Position numbers and translations under genes: made by a program. The notes below the pieces were generated by a model. That model did not search any database. It was given only the letters and a program-made list of their open reading frames with translations, and was not told the DNA's origin. DNA of 63,778 nt, filler included, from Acidimicrobiia bacterium (GTDB lineage Bacteria; Actinomycetota; Acidimicrobiia; Spongiisociales; CAZKJJ01): assembly GCA_046759765.1 (NCBI GenBank). It is 4 parts of 4 records of this genome, joined end to end, with 100 filler letters (N's around TTAATTAATTAA, not from the genome) between each part and the next. Parts side by side here need not be neighbours in the genome. Positions count along the whole stretch, not along the records: positions 1 to 17,227 come from JBHICV010000042.1; 3 more parts are not named here. The stretch is one strand, 5' to 3'. Shown here one piece after another: positions 4,682-52,271 of this stretch. Each line of letters starts with the position of its first letter. The first letter of the stretch is position 1.

Positions 4682-6814
4682 CTAGTCGAGAACTTGCTCG
4701 GCGAGGATCATGGATATGTCCCGCACCGAAACCTTTTCGTTCTTGCCCAGCTCCGCGACCCCATCATCGATCATGACGTAGCAGAAGGGGCAGGCCACGG
4801 CGACCTCGTCGGCACCGGTGGCGATCGCCTCCTCGGCTCGTTCGATCTGTACTTTCTTGCCGGTTCGCTCTTCCATCCACATACGAGCGCCGCCTGCTCC
4901 GCAGCAGAAGCCCTTGGTGCCGCTTCGCTCCATCTCGACGACCTCGACGCCGCCGATGGAGGCGACGACCTCCCGCGGCGCGAGATAGATGTCGTTGTGA
5001 CGGCCGAGGTAGCAGGAGTCGTGATACGTGATCGTGCGGGACTCGTCGGGCTGGGGCTGGAGTCTTCCCTGGCCGAGGAGGTCCATGAGCACCTGGCTGT
5101 GGTGTAGTACCTCGTAGGAGCCTCCGAACTGGGGATAATCATTGGCAAGCGTCGTGAAGCAGTGGGGACACTGGGTGATCACCTTCTCGACCCCCACGTC
5201 GTCGAGGGTCTGGATGTTCTGGAGCGCCAGCTGTTGGAACACGTACTCGTTGCCCGAGCGGCGAGCCGGATCGCCCGTGCAGAGCTCCTGTGGACCGAGG
5301 ATGGCGAAGTCGACGCCGGCTTCGTGCAGCAACCGAGCAGTGGCGACTGTCACCTTGACGTTCCGATCGTCGAAGGACCCCGCACAGCCCACCCAATAGA
5401 GGTACTCGGCGCTATCGACACCTGGAGCACCAAGAATCTTCACGTCGAAATCCAACTGCTCGATCCAGGCGGCTCGGGTCTGTTGGTCCAGGCCATAGAC
5501 ATTCGCTTGGTTCTCGAGAGCCAGGTAGGTCTTGCCGAGCTCAGCGGGGAAGTCCGCCTCCATTAGCACCAGATAGCGGCGCATGTCGAGGATCTTGTCG
5601 AGTATCTCGATGCCGACTGGACACACCTCGTCGCAAGCTCGGCAAGAGGTGCATGCCCAGAGCTCCTCAGGAGTGATCCTCTGGAACACGTTGTCGGCCG
5701 TAACGGTGATGGCGTCGTCGACGCTGACGGGAGGGGAGACGACCGGTGTGCCGGTGGCGGCGGCGACTTCTCCCAGCTTGAGGACGATCTCACGTGGATC
5801 TAACGCCTTGCCCGTCTGGTTGGCAGGGCATACGGAAGTGCACCTTCCACAAACCGTGCAGGCGTCCGTGTCGAGGAGCTGCTTCCAAGTGAAATCTGCG
5901 ACCGCCGTGGCTCCGATGGTGTCGAGCTCGACTGCTTCGAGGAGGTTGGGTACGGGTTTCATTGCCCCGGTCGGGCGGTCCCTGGGCTCGAGGAAGAGGC
6001 TCACCGGGGAGGTGAACATGTGGCGGAGCTTGGTGACCGGTATCACAACTAGCAGGGCCATAAAGGCCGCGGTATGGAGGATCCATAGCCACTGATGCCA
6101 GCCGGCGGGAACGATGGCCGATAGTCCGTAGCCGACGAAGGACCACACCTCGAAGTCAGGTCGTCCGTCCACGGCGATCCGAGCCGCCTCGGTGAGGAGG
6201 CCAGTCAGCCCAATTAGAGCCAGCAATCCCAGAATCCAGGCATCTTCGGGTTTGGTCTTGGAGCGGAGCCTTAGCGGCCGCTGGCCGTAGCGACGCAAGG
6301 CGGCGCCCGCGAGTCCCGCCAGGAAGACGACGCCGGCGCCGTCGAGGACGAACGAATAGCCCTGATAGACAGCACCCTTCAAAAACTTGAAGTCGGCCGG
6401 TAGCAGGTGGTCGATCTCGAGAGTGACTGTTCCCAGGAACAGGACCACGAACCCGTAGTAGATCGCGGCATGGACCATTCCCGCAGCCCGATCCCGGGCG
6501 ACGGTCTTGTTGGAAAGCCCCTCTAGGAGGCGGCGGATTCGCTCTGCCCACGAACCCGCACGCCGGTCCGGGCCACCTCGCTCCCAGTTCCGGGCGCGCA
6601 GAGAGAAGAAGTAGAACATCAGGAATGTGAAGGAGGCAGCAGCTATGTAGAAGACGGCCACCACCGCACCCGGGATGTTGCCGAAGACCACCCGGCCGAC
6701 ATCGTGAACGGGGTGCCCCGGAAGCGTTCCCAGCCACCAGAGGAACAGAATTCCGACGCCGGAAAGTGCACCGAGAGCCAGCAAGATGCCACTGGCGGTC
6801 AGTCGTCGGCGCAT
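4682..6814 (-). CDS. membrane-bound Fe-S oxidoreductase (FadF/HdrD-like: NarI-type membrane domain, 2x4Fe-4S, 2xCCG)
   Basis: [59 protein letters not shown]. Confidence 0.92.
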
Positions 6815-7768: not shown

Positions 7769-8680
7769 TCAGCTGCCGATCACCGCCCGCGAGAAGAAGA
7801 GAAGGTTGGCCGGCCGTTCGGCCAGGCGACGGGTCAAGTAGGCGTACCACTCGGATCCATAGGGGATATAGACCCGGAGCGGATAGCCGGCTGCGACCAG
7901 CTCCCGTTGGCGGTCGGTCCGGACCCCGTAGAGCATCTGGAACTCATACGGCTCGCTACGTCGGCCGGCGTGCTCCATCGTCAGAGTGATCAGCTCCTCG
8001 TCGTGAGTGGCAATGGCCGGCTTCGTACCGCCGGTTGCCATCAGCGTTTCGAGCAAGTCGCGAAAGCTCGACGACACGGCACCCCTGCTCTGATAGGCAA
8101 TGTCCGGAGACTCCAGGTATGCCCCTTTGCAGAGGCGGATGTGGCCGCCGAGGGACAACAGGCCGCGAAGGTCGTCCTCCGTTCGGTGCAGGTAGGCCTG
8201 GATTGCTACCCCCAAGTTGCCGTGCTGTTCTTGGCTGTCGCGGTAGATCGACAATGTGTCATGGGTGTGAACGCTGTCTTCCATGTCTATCGAGACGGTG
8301 GCACCGACCTCGGCAGCTCGCTCGGCTAAACGGTCGACGTGCTTGCGGCACAGCTCCTCGTCTATACCGAGGCCGAGCTGGGTGAGCTTCACCGAGATGT
8401 TGGCTTCCAGTCCCTCGGCTCCGATCCGATCGAGGCAGGCTAGATAGTCGGCTGCCGCTCGCTCGGCTGTCTCCGCGCTGTGAACGTGCTCGCCGAGGTG
8501 ATCCAACGACACCATGATCTCCTGAGAGTTGAGAGTCCTGGCCACCTCGATGGCATCGTCTAGCTGCTCGCCGGCCACAAACCGCTCCGCCAGCATCCTC
8601 CCCAGCCCCAATTCGGTGAACAATCGGCGGACGTAGGGGTGTTCGGTGACCGCCAAAACGGTACGCGAGAAAGCAGTCAC
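7769..8680 (-). CDS. monofunctional proline dehydrogenase
   Basis: RFVAGE, LDHLGE, ISVKLTQLG, IDMED, IQAYL, IRLCKGAY, IATHD, FQMLYG, YIPYG, YLTRRLAERPAN. Confidence 0.95.
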   Translation of the reverse strand: MTAFSRTVLAVTEHPYVRRLFTELGLGRMLAERFVAGEQLDDAIEVARTLNSQEIMVSLDHLGEHVHSAETAERAAADYLACLDRIGAEGLEANISVKLTQLGLGIDEELCRKHVDRLAERAAEVGATVSIDMEDSVHTHDTLSIYRDSQEQHGNLGVAIQAYLHRTEDDLRGLLSLGGHIRLCKGAYLESPDIAYQSRGAVSSSFRDLLETLMATGGTKPAIATHDEELITLTMEHAGRRSEPYEFQMLYGVRTDRQRELVAAGYPLRVYIPYGSEWYAYLTRRLAERPANLLFFSRAVIGS

Positions 8681-9504
8681 GGACTGTCCTCGGCGCTTGC
8701 TCGCTCACCGAGCTCCCGAGACCGAGCCGCAGCGGCTCTGACCGCATCTTCGATGAGAGCCCGGAAACCGCGCTCCTCCAGTATGTGCATGGCGGCTGCG
8801 GTGGTACCGCCGGGCGAAGTGACCTGCGTTCGGAGCTCGAAAGGAGTCAGGTCGGTCTCGATCAGGAGCGAGCCCGCTCCGCGCAGCGTGTGGTGTACCA
8901 GCGTCTCGGCGAGGTAGTGGGGTATGCCCTCCCGTAGGGCAGCTTCGGTGAGCGCCTCCGCGAGCAAGAACGCGTAGGCAGGACCCGTGCCGCTTACGGC
9001 CGTTACGGCGTCGAGCAAGCTCTCGTCCATCCGAACGACCTCACCGACGGCCGACAAGACCCCTTCGGCCAGAACGACAGCATCCTCATCTGTGTGGGCG
9101 CCGCCGGAGATCCCTGTTATGCCTGCTCCTACCAGCGCCGGAGTGTTGGGCATCGCCCTCACCACAGGTACAGCCCCGAGCACCTCTTCGATCATTCGAG
9201 TAGACACGCCGGCGGCCAGCGAGAGCACGAGCTGGGCTTCTCCGAGATGGCCCGCCAGGCGATCGATTACCCCGCGAACGTCGCGCGGTTTGACGGCCAA
9301 CACGATCACGTCAGATCCTTCGATGCCCTCAACTGGATCCTGCGTGCTGCGGCCGCCCAGCTTTTCGGCCAACTCCTCGGCCTGATCTGAACGCCTGACA
9401 ACCATAGAGATGCTGCTCGGCGCCCAGCCGCCTCTCGTTAGGCCGGCGAAGAGGGCCGTGCCCATCGCCCCCATGCCGATGATGCAGATCGACGGACGCT
9501 CCAC
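8677..9504 (-). CDS. proC: pyrroline-5-carboxylate reductase
   Basis: IIGMGAMG, LAVKP, RAMPNTP, AVTAVSGTGPAY, VTSPGGTT; start placed at GTG 9504 because the longer ORF overlaps the divergent gene. Confidence 0.95.
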   Translation of the reverse strand: MERPSICIIGMGAMGTALFAGLTRGGWAPSSISMVVRRSDQAEELAEKLGGRSTQDPVEGIEGSDVIVLAVKPRDVRGVIDRLAGHLGEAQLVLSLAAGVSTRMIEEVLGAVPVVRAMPNTPALVGAGITGISGGAHTDEDAVVLAEGVLSAVGEVVRMDESLLDAVTAVSGTGPAYAFLLAEALTEAALREGIPHYLAETLVHHTLRGAGSLLIETDLTPFELRTQVTSPGGTTAAAMHILEERGFRALIEDAVRAAAARSRELGERASAEDSP

Positions 9505-9565
9505 GTCGCCGAGTATATGAACGGCCTCCGGAAGATCCCCCAGCAAGGCCTCGTTGTAGTAGAGC

Positions 9566-10579
9566 ATGAGTCGAGCCACCGTCCTTGGCGTGATCGGGTT
9601 AATCGCGCTCGTGGTGGCCTTCTTCGCGCTCAATCGTCAGCCTTCCTTGCGCACGCCGGAGACGGTGCCTGACGTCGATCCCAGCTCCGTTTACGACCCG
9701 TATCGGGCGGGGGAGCAACTGCCTTCCGGTTACCGACAGTTGCTGCCGCGGGATGCCATTCGTCCCGTGTATCAAGCCGTATTCGTACGGGCCTCAGAGG
9801 CCGGCTGGGACGATGAAGATCTTGTTATCGGTCTTGAGATCAATGACGAAGCCAAGGCTTATCCCGTTGGCTTTCTCAATCGGCGGGAGATGGTCATCGA
9901 CTCCGTGGCGGGGATTCCAGTTCTGGTCACGTGGTGACCGCTGTGTGCCACGGCGATGGTGCATCGCCGAGAAGTCGAAGGTCAGGCGCTCGTACTCGGG
10001 AACCAAGGTGCACTATGGGGCAACGCCATGACCTGGTGGGACCACGAAACCGGAAGCATTTGGAGCCAGCCGCTCGGCGAAGCGATCGCCGGCCCGCTCA
10101 AGGGAACGACCCTCGAACCGCTGCCTTCAGCCCTGACCACTTGGGAGGCATGGCGCGAGGCACATCCTGACACGCTGGCTCTCGACGCCCCCACCAACCA
10201 GTCTGGTTTTCGCCTCGAAAGCATGGCGATCGTTTTGGACCTTGCCGACGACCCGACCGCCTTCCCAGTGACACTCGTCCGGGAGGCAGGGGTCATCAAT
10301 GAAGTCGTGGCGGACCTCGAGGTTGCGGTTGTGGTCGATCCGACCGACGACAACCGCTGGGCGGTCTTCTCTCGTCGGCTCGATGATCAGGTGGTCACGC
10401 TGGCAGTAGATGGTGACCGGATAGTGGACCTAGAGACGGGATCGGTCTGGGATCCCGTAACGGGCGTGGCGAGCGAAGGTCCACTGGCAGGCGAACTCCT
10501 GAACAAGCTCCCAGGGTTCACTTCGTTCCCCCGCGACTTCTTCACGTTCTGGCCGGAAGGGACGTTGTGGAGGCCCTAA
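9566..10579 (+). CDS. DUF3179 domain selenoprotein (TGA 9935-9937 read as Sec)
   Basis: ORFs 9566-9937 and 9956-10579 are in one frame: VLVTW-TGA-PLCATAMV, a CxxC-like site; DAIRPV, KAYP, WDHETGSIWSQ and TTWEAWREAHPDT motifs. Confidence 0.88.
9951..9969 (+). promoter_or_regulatory. putative bacterial SECIS hairpin
   Basis: perfect 8-bp stem CGGCGATG/CATCGCCG with a GTG loop, starting 14 nt after the in-frame TGA. Confidence 0.7.
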
Positions 10580-10582
10580 GGG

Positions 10583-10647
10583 AGTTGTCAGCTATCAGCT
10601 TTCAGGAGTCAGCCAGAATTACTCACAAGAACTGAAAACTGGCGACT
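10583..10647. repeat. inverted heptamer-repeat element between convergent genes
   Basis: AGTTGTC AGCTATC AGCTTTC AGGAGTC ... ACTGAAA ACTGGCG ACT. Confidence 0.65.
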
Positions 10648-11204
10648 TAGTCCTTCTTCTTCGCGGCCCTCTTTGCCTCCCTGAGAACAGCGATATCTTC
10701 GTAGTCCGCCACGTCGGCGATAGATGCCCAGTCGGCGGAGACTTCTTCCCAGCCCGGAGGTCCGACACCGAGCCGCTTACCGACCACTCCCACGAAGATC
10801 CTCGACTTGGCTTTCCCGAATCCCGGGAGCGCCTCGAGCCGTTGGAGCAGGTCCTTACCCGACTCGGCCGTTTCCCATATCCGGGCTGCCTCTCCCCCGT
10901 AGGAGTCCGCCACCTGGCGACATAAGTCCTGGGTACGCCCTGCCATAGAGCCGGGAAATCGGTGGATAGCCGGCGGACCTTTGAAGATGGCGACCATTGC
11001 GTCCGGGTCGTAATCCGCGATCTCACGGGCATCGAGCTTGGCTCCCAAACGCTCTTGAAGCAGGAACGGCCCGTAGAAGGCCCGCTCCATTGGGAACTGC
11101 TGGTCGAGCAGCATCCCGATCAGCAGCGCGAGGGGGTCCTCAGCCAAGAGGCGATCGGCCGCGTCCTCACCGGTCCACGGCAGGATCTCGGGTTTCCCGG
11201 CCAT
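10647..11204 (-). CDS. HhH-GPD-type base excision repair protein
   Basis: DPLALLIGMLLDQQFPMERAFYGP, IHRFPGSMA, LPGFGKAKSRIF. Confidence 0.9.
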   Translation of the reverse strand: MAGKPEILPWTGEDAADRLLAEDPLALLIGMLLDQQFPMERAFYGPFLLQERLGAKLDAREIADYDPDAMVAIFKGPPAIHRFPGSMAGRTQDLCRQVADSYGGEAARIWETAESGKDLLQRLEALPGFGKAKSRIFVGVVGKRLGVGPPGWEEVSADWASIADVADYEDIAVLREAKRAAKKKD

Positions 11205-17227: not shown

Positions 17228-17327
17228 NNNNNNNNNNNNNNNNNNNNNNNNNNNNNNNNNNNNNNNNNNNNTTAATTAATTAANNNNNNNNNNNNNNNNN
17301 NNNNNNNNNNNNNNNNNNNNNNNNNNN
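17228..17327. other. artificial contig linker
   Basis: N44-TTAATTAATTAA-N44 (stops in all six frames). Confidence 0.98.
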
Positions 17328-24954: not shown

Positions 24955-25986
24955 TTAGGGCATCAGATCCGGTAGCAGCCGCAGGGAGTCAACATCGAGC
25001 GGCGTCACCAGCAACGTTGTCACACCCGACTCCGACCATGCGGCCAGACGGTCCCCAACGGCTTCCGCCGGGCCCAGGAGGTTGGTCTGATCGACGAGGG
25101 CGTCGGGAACTGCGCTGGCCGCCTCTTCCTTGCGGCCCGTGAGATACAGGTCCTGTATCTGACGGGCAGCTTGCTCGTACCCGTAGCGCACCGCCAGATC
25201 CCAGTAGAAGTTGCGCTCAGGCGATCCCATCCCACCTACATAGAGAGCCACGGTCGGTTTCACGTGGGAACGCGCAGAGTCGAGATCGTCGGTCACCCCG
25301 ACCACGGCTCCAGCCGCTACATCGAAGCGGGCTTCCTTGTCTGCCTCTCCCGACCGAGCAAAACCTTCCGCTAGAGCAGGACGGAACAGCCCCGCGTGAT
25401 CAGGCGAATAGAAGAAGGGTAGCCAGCCGTCGGCAATCTCCGCCGCTAATGCCACATTCCGGGGTCCCATCGCCGCCAGATAGATCGGAAGGTCCGACCG
25501 CTTGGGCTGCATGATCAGCTTCAGGGGCTTACCGAGACCGGTGGCATCCGAGCCCTCGTAGGGGATCTGGTAGTAGTCGCCCTCGTATGAAACCGGGCCG
25601 TCCCGAGCCAAAACCCGCCTCACGATCTCGACGTACTCGCGGGTGCGGGCCAATGGGCGCCCATAGGGGACCCCGTGCCATCCTTCGGCCACCTGCGGTC
25701 CAGAGACACCGAGGCCGAGCAGGAACCGTCCGCCGGAGAGCTCATCGAGCGTCGCCGCGGTCATGGCCGTCATGGCTGGACTTCGCCCGGGGATCTGAAA
25801 TATCCCCGCCCCTAGTTTGATCCGCGACGTCGACGCCCCCAGCCAGCTCAGGACAGTGACGGCGTCTGAGCCGTAGGCCTCGGCGGCCCAAACGGAGTCA
25901 TAGCCGAGGCGTTCGGCCTCGATCACCATGTCAATGTCCGTCCGCGACGAGCGGGTCCAGTAGGAAAGATTGAGTCCCAGCCTCAT
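24955..25986 (-). CDS. LLM class F420-dependent oxidoreductase
   Basis: MRLGLNL, WAAEAYGSDA, LSGGRFLLGLGVSGPQVAEGWHG, YVGGMG. Confidence 0.93.
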   Translation of the reverse strand: MRLGLNLSYWTRSSRTDIDMVIEAERLGYDSVWAAEAYGSDAVTVLSWLGASTSRIKLGAGIFQIPGRSPAMTAMTAATLDELSGGRFLLGLGVSGPQVAEGWHGVPYGRPLARTREYVEIVRRVLARDGPVSYEGDYYQIPYEGSDATGLGKPLKLIMQPKRSDLPIYLAAMGPRNVALAAEIADGWLPFFYSPDHAGLFRPALAEGFARSGEADKEARFDVAAGAVVGVTDDLDSARSHVKPTVALYVGGMGSPERNFYWDLAVRYGYEQAARQIQDLYLTGRKEEAASAVPDALVDQTNLLGPAEAVGDRLAAWSESGVTTLLVTPLDVDSLRLLPDLMP

Positions 25987-26019
25987 CATGCGATTCTGGC
26001 TCAGCGTCCCAGCCTGAGC

Positions 26020-26044
26020 GAACCACGTCGTCAGACGCTGCGTA
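26020..26044 (+). promoter_or_regulatory. possible ECF-type promoter of the lipoprotein gene
   Basis: GAACC-N16-CGTA, 9 nt before ATG 26054. Confidence 0.35.
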
Positions 26045-26053
26045 GGATCTGGT

Positions 26054-26683
26054 ATGCATCGCTTCACACCCATTGCAGTACTCGCGCTGGTCGCCGTCGC
26101 TTGTGGGTCCGACACGGCTCCCGAGACGTCGCCGGCGACACAGCCCCCGGCCACACAAGCACCCGACACGCAGCCGCCGGAGACCGAGCCGCCGACTACC
26201 GAACCTCCCGCCGGAACCTTCGCTATTTCCGAAGTCGTCTTCGGTCGTGGTGGCGGAGTGGCCGTGCGAAACATCGGCGACGCCGCGGCCAGTGTCGGCG
26301 GCATGGCCGTGTGTCAGCGGCCCAACTACACGACTCTCCCGGACGTCATCGTCCAGCCCGGCGAGGTCATCTGGCTCGTAACAGGAGATCCCGCCGAAAT
26401 CTCCTTTGATCCCGGCCAGGCGCCGGTGGAGCGGATCGGAACCGGAACCTTCTCCGCGAGCAGCGGAGAAATCGGCCTCTACTCGCGACCGAGCTTCGGT
26501 AGCTCGGACTTCATCCGGTCCTACGTCGAATGGGGAGGCTCGGGGCACGGGCGCTCCTCAGTGGCAGTCGGAGCCGGGATCTGGCCCGACGGCGGAACCG
26601 TCGACGTGCCAGACGGTACCGTCCGGATAGTCGCTACCGCCGACCCGGCAGTCGCACCTGCAGATTGGACCGCCGAGGCGTAA
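26054..26683 (+). CDS. lipoprotein of unknown function (lamin-tail-like beta domain)
   Basis: lipobox AVACG; Pro/Thr linker; FAISEV...VAVRNIG. Confidence 0.75.
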   Translation: MHRFTPIAVLALVAVACGSDTAPETSPATQPPATQAPDTQPPETEPPTTEPPAGTFAISEVVFGRGGGVAVRNIGDAAASVGGMAVCQRPNYTTLPDVIVQPGEVIWLVTGDPAEISFDPGQAPVERIGTGTFSASSGEIGLYSRPSFGSSDFIRSYVEWGGSGHGRSSVAVGAGIWPDGGTVDVPDGTVRIVATADPAVAPADWTAEA

Positions 26684-32778: not shown

Positions 32779-34097
32779 TCAACGCTCCTGCTGTTGCGCG
32801 AACTCGTCTTCGAACGAAACCACCTTGCGGCCCTTCGGCTGGTCCCCTCTCCTTTCGTCCCGGGGGCGCTTTTCGCGGTCCGGCCTTCTGGGAGGATGCT
32901 CTTCGGGTCCTCGCTCGGCCAGGACGAGGCTCAGTTTCCCGTTGTCGTCGATGTCCTGGACCACGACCTTGACGGTCTGTCCTAACTGGAGCACGTCCTC
33001 GACTCGGTCGATGCGCTTGCCGCCTCCGAGTTTGGAGATATGGAGAAGCCCGTCTCTTCCCGGAAGAATGTTGACGAAGGCCCCGAACTTGGTGATGTTC
33101 ACGACTTCTCCCTCGTAGGTGATGCCTAGCTCGGGTTCCGGCGGGAACGCGATGAGATGAATGGTCTCCATAGCAGCTTCCACTGCCTCGCCGTCGGCAG
33201 AGCCGACACGAACAATGCCGAATTCGCCCTCTTCCTCTATCTCGACACTGGCGCCCGTCTCCTCCTCGATCTGGCGGATCATCTTCCCCTTGGGACCAAT
33301 TACATCTCCGATCTTGTCCTTGGGTATCTCAATGGCCTCGATCCGAGGGGCGAACTTGCTCAGCTTGTTCCTCACCTCCGGGATGGCCTCCCTCATCTTC
33401 TCGAGGATTTTCAGCCGCGCTTCGCGGGCCTGGTCGAGGGCAGTCGAAAGCACCTCGGAGGGAAGGCCCTGGATCTTCGTGTCGAGCTGAAGTGCGGTGA
33501 TCTGATCAGCCGTGCCGGCAACCTTGAAGTCCATATCACCCAATGCATCTTCGGCGCCCTGGATGTCGGTAAGCGGCACGAAGTTGTCGCCGTCGGCCAC
33601 AAGTCCCATAGCGATTCCCGCTACCGGCTCGATTATGGGAACGCCGGCGTCCATCAAGGAGAGGCTCGAGGCGCAAACTGAGGCCATCGAGGTTGACCCG
33701 TTGGACGAGAGAACCTCCGACACCAACCGCAGGGCGTATGGAAACTCCTCGACGGTTGGGATGACGGGATGGACTGCCTTCTCTGCCAGAGCCCCATGGC
33801 CGATCTCCCGACGCCGCGGCCCTCGCATAAACCCGGCCTCGCCGGTCGAGAAAGGCGGGAAGTTGTAGTGATGCATGTAACGCTTGCTCTCTTCGATCGA
33901 AAGCGTGTCGAGCATCTGCTCCATCCTCAGCATGCCCAGCGTCGCCAGATTCAGCACCTGGGTCTCGCCGCGCGAGAACAGACCGGAGCCGTGCGTGCGC
34001 GGTACAACGCCCACCTCTGCGCCCAGTGGCCTTATATCGCCCGGCCCCCGACCGTCCATTCGAATGCCTTGAGTGATAACACGCTCCCGCATCCTTT
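32779..34097 (-). CDS. pnp: polyribonucleotide nucleotidyltransferase, 5' truncated
   Basis: [44 protein letters not shown] and S1 domains. Confidence 0.97.
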
Positions 34098-34197
34098 NNN
34101 NNNNNNNNNNNNNNNNNNNNNNNNNNNNNNNNNNNNNNNNNTTAATTAATTAANNNNNNNNNNNNNNNNNNNNNNNNNNNNNNNNNNNNNNNNNNNN
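34098..34197. other. artificial contig linker
   Basis: N44-TTAATTAATTAA-N44. Confidence 0.98.
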
Positions 34198-37350: not shown

Positions 37351-37402
37351 CGATACGAGGATCGCTTGTCTCCTGTAAGTCGACGGTGCAACCTAATGAT
37401 CT

Positions 37403-38164
37403 GTGATAGCAGTTGCTTCGTTCTTCATCGTCATCCTGGTCACACTCATCGTGACCAGGGTGGCAACGATGGCCCTGATCGCCACCGGGCTGCCCCGCGA
37501 GGTAGCCCGGTTCCAGGCCCGGTCCGCCCTCTCCGGAGTCGGGTTCACAACGACGGAGGCGGAAAGCATCGTCGGGCACCCCCTCCGACGTCGGATCGTC
37601 TTCTGGCTGATGCTTGTCGGCAATGCGGGGTTCGTCACAATCGTCGTGTCGCTGATCCTGACGTTTGCCAACAGCGCCGGGGGCACGTGACGCCCTCGCG
37701 CGACTCGCGATCGTCGTAGCCGGGCTGGCGTTGATCTCGTGATATCCCGACGTCAAATCACCGAGCGTTACCTAACCCGCTGGATACCGAGAGGATTGAG
37801 CAAGTGGACCGACCTGGAGGTGCGCGACATGATCCACCTCATGCATCTCACCAAGGACTACGCCATCTCGGAGCTGAAGGTCAACCCGGGCGACTGGCTG
37901 GCGGATACCTCGCTCCAGAACCTGCAACTCCCCAACGAGGGAATTCCGGTGCTCGGGATCCAGAGGGCAGACGGCCAGCTCGTCGGTGCCCCTCGCGGAC
38001 GGAGCGTGGTGCAGCCTTATGACACGTTGATCCTGTACGGCCGATCGAGCGTGCTCAAAGAACTGGATCAGAGACCCGCCGACCGAAAGGGAGATATCGC
38101 CCACTCCGAGGCGGTAACCGAGCACAGGCAGCTCGAGCAGACGGAAGAAGAGAGCGAATCATGA
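37403..38164 (+). pseudogene. TrkA_C (RCK_C) domain membrane protein with two compensating frameshifts
   Basis: TGLPREVARFQARSALSGVGFTTTEAE; GIPVLGIQRADG; correcting +1 G at 37679-37683 and -1 near 37736 restores the TM helix ALARLAIVVAGLALI. Confidence 0.75.
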
Positions 38165-45813: not shown

Positions 45814-46866
45814 TCAATTGAGAGCCGGCATCACTCGATCGTGGATCAAGTCCAGCTGGCCAAGCGTGTCGGGACAGTTCTCGATCTCCCTGCCGGTAAA
45901 TGCGTTCACCAGATACGGATCGGTGATGGCCGCCACGATGTGATTGATGCCGGTCGGCAAAATGTCGCTCTGCAGCTTGGCCACGCACTCTTCCGGAGTG
46001 CCAGCTATCGAAAGCAGCTCTCCCAGCTCGGGTGAGGTGAGGTCAACCGCCCTCTGAACATCTCCCTCCCCGAACGCATCGAAGATCGGCTTCAGGCTGG
46101 CGTAGTCGACTCCGTGCCGCTCGAACTGCTTCTCGGGCATCGCGGAGAGGTAGAAAGCCACCATGATCCGTGCGACCTCTTTCGCCGCCGCCGAGTCCTC
46201 GCCGCAGACCCAGACCACCCAAGCCGCCAGGTCAAGCTCCTGCCAATCCCGGCCGGCCTTCTCGGCGCCCTCTTTGACGTTGTCCATCACAAAGTCGTAG
46301 TTGGCGCGGTTGTAGCCCAAGGCGTGGTGCAGTCCGTCGAACTGCTCGCCGGCAATCTGGAACGACCGGGGTCCTCCCATCGCCCCCAGCTTGATCGGCA
46401 CCCGCTCCTGAACCGGTCGGGAGAGTGTGAACAACCCGGTGTAGTTGAAGAAGTCACCTTCGAAGTTGATGGCACCCTCGTCAAGGAAGGTCCGCATCAC
46501 CTGTCGGGCCTCCATGACCCTGCTCAGCGGCCTATCTCGGGCCCAATCGATGTGATACTGACCCAGCAGAGAGAGGTTGCCGAAGCTGACGACCAAGTCG
46601 GCTCGCCCACCGGAGAGCTCGTCGAGTGTGGCGAGCTGCTGGATGATGAGCGTCGGCTCCCTGAGAATCACGTGGGTGACGCTGGGTCCCATCTTGATCT
46701 GCTTGGTTTCGGCGGCCGCAGCTGCGAACAGCAGCCACATGTCCTTCCACCACGTCTCGTCCACCGAATACGCGCCATAGAACCCGAGCTCGTCCGCCCG
46801 CTTGATCATGTTGATCGAATCTGTCAACGGGAACGCGGGCAGATGCATGTAGCTGAAGTTGACCAT
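45814..46866 (-). CDS. LLM class flavin/F420-dependent oxidoreductase (Mer-like)
   Basis: GPSVTH, LATLDELSGGRA, LGAMGGP, IAGTPEEC. Confidence 0.88.
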   Translation of the reverse strand: MVNFSYMHLPAFPLTDSINMIKRADELGFYGAYSVDETWWKDMWLLFAAAAAETKQIKMGPSVTHVILREPTLIIQQLATLDELSGGRADLVVSFGNLSLLGQYHIDWARDRPLSRVMEARQVMRTFLDEGAINFEGDFFNYTGLFTLSRPVQERVPIKLGAMGGPRSFQIAGEQFDGLHHALGYNRANYDFVMDNVKEGAEKAGRDWQELDLAAWVVWVCGEDSAAAKEVARIMVAFYLSAMPEKQFERHGVDYASLKPIFDAFGEGDVQRAVDLTSPELGELLSIAGTPEECVAKLQSDILPTGINHIVAAITDPYLVNAFTGREIENCPDTLGQLDLIHDRVMPALN

Positions 46867-50942: not shown

Positions 50943-51042
50943 NNNNNNNNNNNNNNNNNNNNNNNNNNNNNNNNNNNNNNNNNNNNTTAATTAATTAANN
51001 NNNNNNNNNNNNNNNNNNNNNNNNNNNNNNNNNNNNNNNNNN
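50943..51042. other. artificial contig linker
   Basis: N44-TTAATTAATTAA-N44. Confidence 0.98.
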
Positions 51043-51212: not shown

Positions 51213-52271
51213 CTGACGATTCCATTTCGCATCGGTGTCATGCAGCTCACGATGGAGCCTCTGGCTGAGATCGTCGAGCATGCCCGGGCCATGGACGCCC
51301 ACGGATTCGACACCATCTGGCTGGCGGAGGCCTATCCCTGGTGGCGCAAGCACTCGATGGAGGCGAGGTCTTCGACGGCGCTGTCGGCTGTCATCGGCAG
51401 GGAAACCGACCGCATAGCAGTCGGCTGGGGCATCATCTCTCCTTTCACGCGCCACCCCATCCAGGTGGCAATGGACGCTCGGGTGACGCAGGAAGCCGCC
51501 GGGACAGGTCGCTTCTATCTGGGGCTCGGAGCCTCGAAGATCTTCATGGGGGAGATCGGTGACCCCGGGCTGCCCCTCACCGCCGTCGTGGAGAGCATCC
51601 ACATCGTTCGAAAGATCCTGGCCGGAGAGGCCATCGACTTTGAGGGCAAGGTCTTCAACGCTCGAGTGCCCCCTATGCCGCCCGACACGGATGCGCCGCG
51701 GGACCCCGTACCCATCTATATGGCGGGCACGGGTCCCCGCATGCAGCAAACCGCGGGCGAAATCGCGGAAGGGCTGCTGACACCCAGCATCACCACACCC
51801 GATTTCGTGAGGTATGCAAAGGAGAACCTGGTCACCGGTGCCCGCAGCGCCGGCCGTGATCCGGACCAGATCGACATCGGTTGCACCATCGTCGCTTCGA
51901 TCGATCACGACCGGGGCGAGGGTCGAGACGGAGCCAGGGAGATCGCCGGCATGTACCTGGCCAATAAGGTCCAGAACATCCGGGGATCCGCGGACGTGCT
52001 GCTCGAGAAGGCGGGTCTCTCGTTCGATGAGATTCGCCCCATTGCCGAGGCGATGGAGCGAGGAGGGCGCATGGCCGCCAAGGACCAAGTGACGGATGAC
52101 ATCCTCGACAAAACGCGGCCCATCGCAGGAACTCCGGATGATTGCATTGAGGCCATCCAGGCCTATCGGGCCGCCGGTTGCACCCAAATAATGCTCGAGC
52201 TGTGGGGCGCCGAGCGAGAGAAGCAGCTGGAGCTGTTCGCCCGGGCGGTCCTACCGGCGTTCAAGGAGTGA
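51213..52271 (+). CDS. LLM class flavin/F420-dependent oxidoreductase
   Basis: IWLAEAY, GIISPFTRHP, LGLG, MAGTGP, AGTPDDC; first ATG is 51240, but an in-frame CTG at 51213 follows GGAGG. Confidence 0.88.
   Translation: MTIPFRIGVMQLTMEPLAEIVEHARAMDAHGFDTIWLAEAYPWWRKHSMEARSSTALSAVIGRETDRIAVGWGIISPFTRHPIQVAMDARVTQEAAGTGRFYLGLGASKIFMGEIGDPGLPLTAVVESIHIVRKILAGEAIDFEGKVFNARVPPMPPDTDAPRDPVPIYMAGTGPRMQQTAGEIAEGLLTPSITTPDFVRYAKENLVTGARSAGRDPDQIDIGCTIVASIDHDRGEGRDGAREIAGMYLANKVQNIRGSADVLLEKAGLSFDEIRPIAEAMERGGRMAAKDQVTDDILDKTRPIAGTPDDCIEAIQAYRAAGCTQIMLELWGAEREKQLELFARAVLPAFKE

Follow-up and report, generated by a model that had tools for sequence, protein, structure and literature searches.

The gene described here lies in a 63.8-kb stretch of DNA (63,778 nucleotides, called the window throughout) from the Acidimicrobiia bacterium assembly GCA_046759765.1, where a single reading frame on the plus strand, positions 9566-10579, encodes a DUF3179 protein and contains one in-frame TGA at 9935-9937. 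The frame runs from an ATG at 9566 to a TAA stop at 10577-10579 and comprises 337 codons when the TGA is counted as selenocysteine (Sec) 124. A stop codon at 9563 abuts the frame upstream, so no start earlier than 9566 is available. Translation with table 11 yields two open reading frames (ORFs) from the same frame, 9566-9937 (123 amino acids, aa) and 9956-10579 (207 aa), while reading the TGA as U gives a product of 337 aa with the local sequence PVLVTW-U-PLC-ATAMVH. The features of the locus are the following.

9566..10579, plus strand: putative complete coding sequence (CDS) of a DUF3179 selenoprotein, from the PF11376 match across the TGA, the homologue coverage and the AlphaFold2 model.
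9572..9631, plus strand: N-terminal hydrophobic helix, residues 3-22, ATVLGVIGLIALVVAFFALN, a predicted signal-anchor or signal peptide, from the sequence and the model.
9935..9937, plus strand: in-frame TGA, putatively U124, from the Cys in aligned homologues and the TGA in orthologous copies.
9935..9946, plus strand: U-P-L-C motif, with U124 closing strand 117-124 and C127 in the turn after it, from the sequence and DSSP on the model.
9951..9969, plus strand: hairpin resembling a selenocysteine insertion sequence (SECIS), with an 8-bp stem 9951-9958/9962-9969 and the loop GUG at 9959-9961, from conservation, RNAalifold and a covariance model.
9566..9937, plus strand: first table 11 ORF fragment, 123 aa, an artefact of taking the TGA as a stop.
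9956..10579, plus strand: second table 11 ORF fragment, 207 aa, the form reported by gene callers, from the table 11 ORFs and the database matches.

The read-through protein belongs to the DUF3179 family (PF11376, E 5e-56, 190.7 bits against a gathering cut-off of 27), and the best PF11376 stretch, residues 62-212, crosses the TGA. No NCBIfam family model matches the read-through protein. A search of a collection of 5.8 billion proteins, in which 8,000 candidates were scored, gave 1,906 relatives at E <= 1e-3, and the best 120 of these were examined. Full-length homologues make up 49 of the best 120; they are 299-398 aa long, cover 87-100% of the read-through protein and in every case (49/49) have Cys at the TGA column, in the form W-C-x-x-C-[GA]-T. 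The other 71 matches are C-terminal pieces of 206-224 aa that cover 60-61% of the query, one of them being the window's own, as expected from gene callers that stop at a TGA. U residues of database proteins are displayed as C, so that a few of the NCBI-derived Cys rows might be Sec, which Prodigal-type rows cannot be. Some NCBI relatives carry the name 'DUF3179 domain-containing (seleno)protein'; the one record of this name that was tied to DNA, P0008 (the same as locus L059), is a Cys form with TGC.

A family-wide scan gave 12,589 cluster representatives at E <= 1e-3, and an alignment of 144 rows was made from the query and 143 of the 150 best representatives, the seven longer than 700 aa being dropped. 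The first position of the U/CxxC motif is Cys in 127 of the 132 non-gap rows and the second position in 124 of 132. The conserved family set consists of C124, C127, R135, D159, T162, S164, W166, Q168, G176, W193 and W196, with D159 present in 143 rows and W166 in all 144. The window protein has the complete D..T.S.W.Q block (D159, T162, S164, W166, Q168) as well as W123-U124-P-L-C127. Distant Cys-type DUF3179 paralogues with the motif TYCPLCNT were seen a few kb from the Sec-type gene at L004 (1469-1522, minus strand), L015 (2566-2619, minus strand) and L031 (3656-3709, minus strand), and a tBLASTn search found no paralogue of the DUF3179 protein within the window.

The TGA is shared by many species. 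A scan of species-representative genomes gave 335 confirmed relatives, of which the best 80 matches, at 79 loci, were retained. The label Acidimicrobiia is attached to 61 of the 79, and the others are labelled more loosely or as other phyla, these labels being bin assignments that were taken as given. Of the 80 gene copies, 78 have TGA at the aligned column; the two exceptions, with TGC, are L059 and the first member of the tandem pair in L071. The residues around the TGA are conserved, with W at -1, P at +1 and C at +3 each found in 79 of 79 rows, the window counted. Since the TGA is shared across species with conserved flanks, a private nonsense mutation or sequencing error is excluded. Some metagenome-assembled genomes give two loci each (for example L014/L021, L022/L071 and L046/L069), and Sec-form paralogues thus coexist. 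L070 has a second in-frame TGA near positions 6540-6560, where the others have Trp (FTS*GAWREEHP), with a run of N upstream; this could be a sequencing error or a pseudogene.

A FastTree tree of 130 rows (79 Sec and 51 Cys), for which the trait column was masked, requires a minimum of 10 Sec/Cys changes, five of which are forced by well-supported branches; it is a quick tree that counts changes without regard to direction. The nearest row to the window protein on the tree is P0002, a Cys form with 65-68% identity. The tandem DUF3179 genes of L071 lie at 6364 (TGC) and 7516 (TGA), and this pair looks like a recent switch from Sec to Cys or from Cys to Sec.

Downstream of the TGA, CGGCGATG at 9951-9958, GTG at 9959-9961 and CATCGCCG at 9962-9969 form a G+C-rich hairpin of eight perfect pairs. 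The first stem base is separated from the TGA by 13 nt, and the apical loop lies 21 nt after the UGA. In bacterial SECIS elements the distance from the UGA to the start is about 11 nt, and a G and a U in the apical loop are contacted by SelB, a geometry that the present hairpin fits. The case for the hairpin rests on comparison and not on the window sequence alone. The same helix is found at the same distance from the TGA in all 79 TGA-bearing copies (78 from the loci plus the window). In an alignment of 78 TGA-bearing sequences, with L070 left out and the helix in columns 17-24/28-35, the 8-bp helix is paired in 99.7% of the 624 alignment cells, compared with 13.5-57.1% when the 3' arm was slid by 1-3 columns as a control. 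RNAalifold independently predicts the same helix. Two compensatory pairs are present (C-G to G-C and G-C to A-U), both in L064, alongside two G-U wobbles and two mismatches. A possible lower stem, UGACC/GGUCA, was considered and rejected, as its pairing is not conserved in the alignment.

The codons that make up the hairpin are frozen: ACG in 79 of 79, GCG in 77 of 77, CAT in 79 of 79, CGC in 76 of 78 and GTC in 72 of 79, with a synonymous entropy close to zero. Four-fold codons of Gly, Ala, Pro and Thr residues that are just as well conserved outside the hairpin have 1.2-1.9 bits of synonymous entropy, and in contrast to the CAT of the hairpin the His at +36 prefers CAC (72/79). For a probable constraint at the RNA level, these frozen synonymous sites are stronger evidence than the covariation. 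The hexapeptide encoded by the hairpin, TAMVHR, is found in 76 of 79 Sec forms versus 7 of 51 Cys forms, among which 21 variants occur. The hairpin is lost in the Cys form L059, and the Cys copy of L071 keeps it with one G-U pair, as expected of a recent conversion. The apical loop starts with GU in every copy, which is not independent evidence because the same bases are fixed by the Val codon. A covariance model of the hairpin was run over the window and the 79 loci (891,650 bases) and, apart from the 80 known sites, returned only their antisense echoes and a few matches below significance in Cys-type TYCPLC paralogues; no other gene in the window therefore has the same SECIS.

An earlier note on this DNA had proposed that the two ORFs are one frame interrupted by the TGA in VTW-U-PLC, that a perfect 8-bp hairpin with a G-containing loop stands just past the TGA, and that the SECIS lies directly 3' of the UGA. 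The coordinates and translation agree with the first point and the sequence with the second, while the paired helix, the frozen codons and the tie of TAMVHR to the Sec forms speak for the third. The note had also assigned the protein to DUF3179, expected Cys opposite the TGA and described a TYCPLC-type CxxC in the wider family; the PF11376 match, the full-length homologues and the paralogues with this motif bear these claims out.

One frame, membership of the DUF3179 family, the correspondence of Cys and TGA, the presence of the TGA across species and the conservation of a hairpin tied to the TGA are observed at this locus. We consider it very probable, judging from the sequence comparisons, that 9566-10579 (plus strand) is one gene for a 337-aa Sec-containing DUF3179 protein that has been split by annotation, with Sec machinery assumed for the genome. 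During translation the UGA at 9935-9937 would not be taken as a stop, the mRNA hairpin at 9951-9969 would act as a bacterial SECIS that recruits SelB and Sec-tRNA(Sec), and selenocysteine would be inserted to give the U124-P-L-C127 site. What keeps the assignment short of certainty is the Sec machinery and the sequencing reads, of which the window contains neither.

Several results weigh against this assignment. No SelA, SelB or SelD family was detected among the 51 window ORFs scanned, no tRNA gene was found in the window, and tRNA scans of 60 loci revealed no tRNA-Sec. In the FastTree tree the window protein groups as sister to eight Cys forms (support 88, unstarred). Taken by itself, the window sequence does not single the hairpin out: a 54-nt fold has z = -0.86, with 43 of 200 shuffles folding as well, and over the whole window the plus strand carries 15 such perfect hairpins of 8 bp (loops of 3-8 nt) against a mean of 10.1 in 30 Markov shuffles (range 3-18). 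The covariation rests on one sequence, L064, the other seven variable cells being G-U wobbles or mismatches, and is thin evidence by itself. The window's loop, GUG, is found in only 2 of 79 copies, GUC being the commonest. A search of the whole window with Rfam at the gathering score gave no match, and lowering the threshold to E <= 10 over 9800-10100 gave only irrelevant snoRNA and flavivirus matches. As an observation on the tRNA scans, ARAGORN reported a 91-nt 'tRNA-Arg (ccg)' at L032 2417-2507 that is unusually long, with the anticodon at position 31; the anticodon is not UCA.

If the TGA were a true stop, the locus would produce two polypeptides (123 aa, and 207 aa from the ATG at 9956) or the N-terminal piece alone. 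Table 11 yields exactly these ORFs, the ATG at 9956 is close behind the TGA, and gene callers report a piece of the 207-aa type in each of the 71 partial matches. However, the Cys-form homologues are single chains, the break would split a beta-hairpin within one domain, the conserved hairpin itself contains the Met at 9956, for which no ribosome-binding or promoter-like site was found, and the frozen synonymous sites would go unexplained. We therefore regard a true stop as very unlikely.

The same small likelihood is given to a UGA read as a standard amino acid (Trp, Gly or Cys), either through a variant code or through near-cognate suppression that the hairpin would stimulate. Hairpins downstream of a stop codon are able to promote its read-through, and the window itself has no visible Sec machinery. 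However, the aligned residue is Cys and never a Trp or Gly majority, and the position of the hairpin and its G/U apical loop fit the SelB type. Additionally, TGA terminates 26 of the 39 Pfam-supported genes of the window, so the organism uses the standard code, and Sec machinery is present in another order of the Acidimicrobiia (10.64898/2026.04.03.716425). The weakest explanation, and a highly improbable one, is that the TGA is a nonsense mutation or an assembly or sequencing error, in a pseudogene or in a gene that truly reads TGC or TGT: the window is draft sequence with six runs of N, and P0002, the nearest relative on the tree, is a Cys form, but the same TGA is found in 78 of 80 copies, protein conservation runs for 213 codons past it, and only in its presence does the hairpin show constraint as RNA.

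The selenoprotein assignment also fits into what has been published. All 84 complete Actinomarina genomes are reported in a 2026 preprint to have selA, a divergent selB, selC and selD (10.64898/2026.04.03.716425), and since Actinomarina belongs to another order of Acidimicrobiia, the Sec trait exists in the class. DUF3179 is listed in two reviews as a selenoprotein family with UxxC/T (PMC9312934, 2022; PMC13188914, 2026), in line with the earlier note, which had stated that Sec variants are known. Both of these papers credit the DUF3179 selenoprotein to Zhang & Gladyshev 2007 (PMC1976440), the abstract and section 12 of which do not use the name DUF3179; the source cited is a deltaproteobacterial worm-symbiont metagenome. 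No joint mention of DUF3179 and 'Acidimicrobi' was found in the full-text literature, a search whose scope did not extend to subscription journals and supplements. The window gene is thus a new, mis-split member of an already known selenoprotein family, and it will not surprise selenoprotein specialists because DUF3179 is already listed as such.

An AlphaFold2 model of the read-through protein was built from a 33-sequence alignment and has a mean pLDDT of 93.9 and a pTM of 0.87. In this model helix 3-22 is followed by a low-confidence linker at 24-27, U124 ends strand 117-124, and the turn leading into strand 129-134 carries C127 (DSSP). This places U124 within a beta-hairpin, and a break at the TGA would cut this hairpin inside one domain. 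No Pfam match of the thioredoxin type was found, and the U/CxxC is at a strand end and turn. The best fold matches in the PDB (Foldseek) are weak and are to Rieske ferredoxins and domains (E 7.5e-3 to 8e-2, TM on target 0.46-0.59, 87-114 columns); none reaches E <= 1e-3, and a sequence-profile search of the PDB gave nothing at E <= 1. The His residues that would be candidates for Rieske ligands are not conserved in the 144-row alignment, where position 133 is F in 58, Y in 41 and H in 34 rows and position 160 is H in 54, R in 37 and V in 10. Membership based on a Rieske-type metal site was rejected, as CxH...CxxH is absent (the motif is U/CxxC) and H133 and H160 are not conserved; the likeness seen in the model is treated as a fold-level resemblance only.

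With respect to function, we propose that the N-terminal hydrophobic helix (residues 3-22) would anchor or export the protein and that the Sec/Cys pair would sit on a beta-hairpin turn outside the cytoplasm. A TlpA-like redoxin supplied by the membrane electron shuttle CcdA (DsbD_TM) would keep the pair reduced, and the pair might then be a selenol-based redox centre or handle a thiophilic ligand. We give about an even chance to the proposal that the U124/C127 pair is kept reduced by a CcdA-fed TlpA-type redoxin and serves as a selenol redox centre or ligand-handling site. A domain scan of 15 long DUF3179 family representatives found an AhpC-TSA/Redoxin (TlpA-like) domain ahead of DUF3179 in four (P0127, P0208, P0233 and P0251), fn3 in three (P0122, P0188 and P0222, some of them with Ig-like or SWM repeats), VWA in two (P0183 and P0212), NHL in one (P0207), WD40 in one (P0265) and no further domain in four. 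These fusion partners are typical of extracytoplasmic or surface proteins.

Genes of the proposed pathway also occur near DUF3179 genes. A DsbD_TM (CcdA-like) gene lies 1.2-3.1 kb from the DUF3179 gene in 10 of 79 loci, and in four of the six loci tested (L008, L009, L011 and L051) a Redoxin gene adjoins the DsbD_TM gene. In these four loci a convergent Redoxin (TlpA-like)-DsbD_TM-MFS block, at about 7.1-10.5 kb, abuts the 3' end of the Sec-DUF3179 gene. An MFS transporter is downstream in 19 of 79 loci and an ABC ATPase is nearby in 14. The earlier note had proposed that the protein is membrane-anchored and has a redox role, probably outside the cytoplasm; residues 3-22 are helical in the model, which is consistent with the former and with the predicted topology, and the redoxin, fn3, Ig, VWA and NHL fusions together with the Redoxin-CcdA neighbours make the latter plausible. 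A neighbour 'cluster' of 49 loci was rejected as an artefact of antisense ORFs overlapping the split gene.

Some of the evidence goes against the functional proposal. The Redoxin, CcdA and MFS genes are convergent with the DUF3179 gene and are therefore not co-transcribed with it. The neighbourhoods are variable: the MFS transporter is the commonest neighbour at only 19 loci, and a conserved-operon analysis found no neighbour common to the majority of the 79. In the window no redoxin or CcdA gene is near the DUF3179 gene. Moreover, the U/CxxC is located on a beta-turn 'knuckle' and not at a helix N-terminus as in thioredoxin-fold enzymes.

The alternative is that the U/CxxC serves mainly to bind metal, as a knuckle on a beta fold of the Rieske/rubredoxin type that might hold, for example, an Fe-S cluster, Cu(I) or Hg(II), and not as a catalytic redox pair. 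The Rieske proteins among the best PDB fold matches and the placement of the CxxC in a beta-turn are in its favour, and TlpA-type redoxins keep Cu-binding cysteines reduced. However, no fold match reaches E 1e-3, the PDB profile search is empty, and the His needed for a Rieske-type site of two Cys and two His is not conserved across the family at positions 133 and 160. Additionally, UxxT variants without the second Cys are listed (PMC9312934, PMC13188914). A metal-binding role is rather unlikely, and a reduced U124/C127 pair on an exported protein is the reading that we prefer.

In the window the DUF3179 gene is flanked by a divergent proC/proline-dehydrogenase pair on one side and by a convergent HhH-GPD-like gene on the other. 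The divergent proC (pyrroline-5-carboxylate (P5C) reductase) ORF, 8677-9633 on the minus strand, overlaps the DUF3179 start if the longest TTG start is taken; a CATG at 9565-9568 offers possible start codons on both strands, and the true proC start is probably further in, near the Rossmann motif. Promoter and terminator scans of 9300-10800 gave no match.

A search for further selenoproteins in the window returned 97 TGA junctions with at least 60 open codons on both sides, and the nine candidate read-throughs in annotation gaps (10 sequences, examined with Pfam) had no domain crossing the TGA. At 37403-38164 (plus strand, TGA 37688-37690) a 95-aa ORF resembling a two-helix membrane channel and a 141-aa TrkA_C ORF share one frame; TrkA_C lies wholly past the TGA in the frame scanned, 37400-38161, no Cys-type motif is present at the TGA, and these are probably two genes or a broken one. 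Six runs of 44 N are present, at 17228-17271, 17284-17327, 34098-34141, 34154-34197, 50943-50986 and 50999-51042, arranged as three pairs at intervals of about 16.85 kb, a regularity that suggests masking or scaffolding and not biology. The second pair interrupts a polynucleotide phosphorylase (PNPase)-like ORF, 32779-34092 on the minus strand, leaving it without an N-terminal half. The window also has three luciferase-like monooxygenase genes, two aldehyde dehydrogenases and two CCG/Fe-S oxidoreductases, none with an in-frame TGA (coordinates given for this group are 45814-46866, minus strand; 24955-26304, minus strand; and 51240-52271, plus strand), and this gene set fits an actinobacterial, oxidoreductase-rich genome.

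The selenoprotein assignment has consequences for annotation and for the biology of the class. Standard gene callers would mis-split the gene, and because C-terminal pieces account for 71 of the best 120 matches, the true protein would be hidden in most public records of the clade. The gene implies that the organism decodes UGA as Sec, which would add to recent evidence of selenium use in Acidimicrobiia (10.64898/2026.04.03.716425). The near-invariant hairpin could be used directly to search the class for SelB targets. DUF3179 is a large family of no known function, for which the Sec/Cys site, the redoxin fusions and the CcdA-redoxin neighbours provide a testable functional lead. Taken jointly, and tentatively, the results may describe one Acidimicrobiia clade of DUF3179 proteins that are nearly all selenoproteins, with an almost invariant SECIS, CGGCGAUG-GUC-CAUCGCCG, that dictates TAMVHR, at least 5-10 switches between Sec and Cys, and a role as selenol end users of an extracytoplasmic reducing pathway of the CcdA/TlpA type. 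This combined picture is unlikely to hold in all its parts; if true, it would represent an exported selenoenzyme system not yet described for the class and mostly hidden as 207-aa fragments in public gene calls.

The locus can be compared with four known systems. Like the reviewed DUF3179 selenoproteins (PMC9312934, PMC13188914), the window protein matches PF11376, has the putative Sec first in UxxC, has Cys homologues and is encoded with a stem-loop 3' of the UGA; the deltaproteobacterial source of that family (PMC1976440) differs in that the present clade is almost entirely Acidimicrobiia, a comparison made by description only.

The hairpin resembles the bacterial SECIS/SelB paradigm of the E. 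coli fdhF type in beginning within about 11-15 nt of the UGA and inside the CDS, in having G and U in an apical loop about 21 nt past the UGA and in placing the coding sequence under an RNA constraint. It differs from the fdhF type in that the stem is a perfect 8 bp, the loop measures 3 nt (or 5 nt with the closing G-C opened) and a bulged U was not seen.

The Rieske [2Fe-2S] ferredoxins share with the model a weak fold similarity over about 90-110 residues and candidate ligand loops at two beta-hairpin tips, but the DUF3179 protein is without CxH...CxxH, its candidate His residues are not conserved and no match reaches E <= 1e-3. Finally, the Redoxin-DUF3179 fusions and the neighbouring Redoxin-DsbD_TM pairs recall the CcdA (DsbD_TM)-TlpA/ResA pathway, which delivers reducing power to extracytoplasmic thiol proteins; DUF3179 proteins do not themselves have a thioredoxin fold and would be a client or end user of that pathway, not a member.

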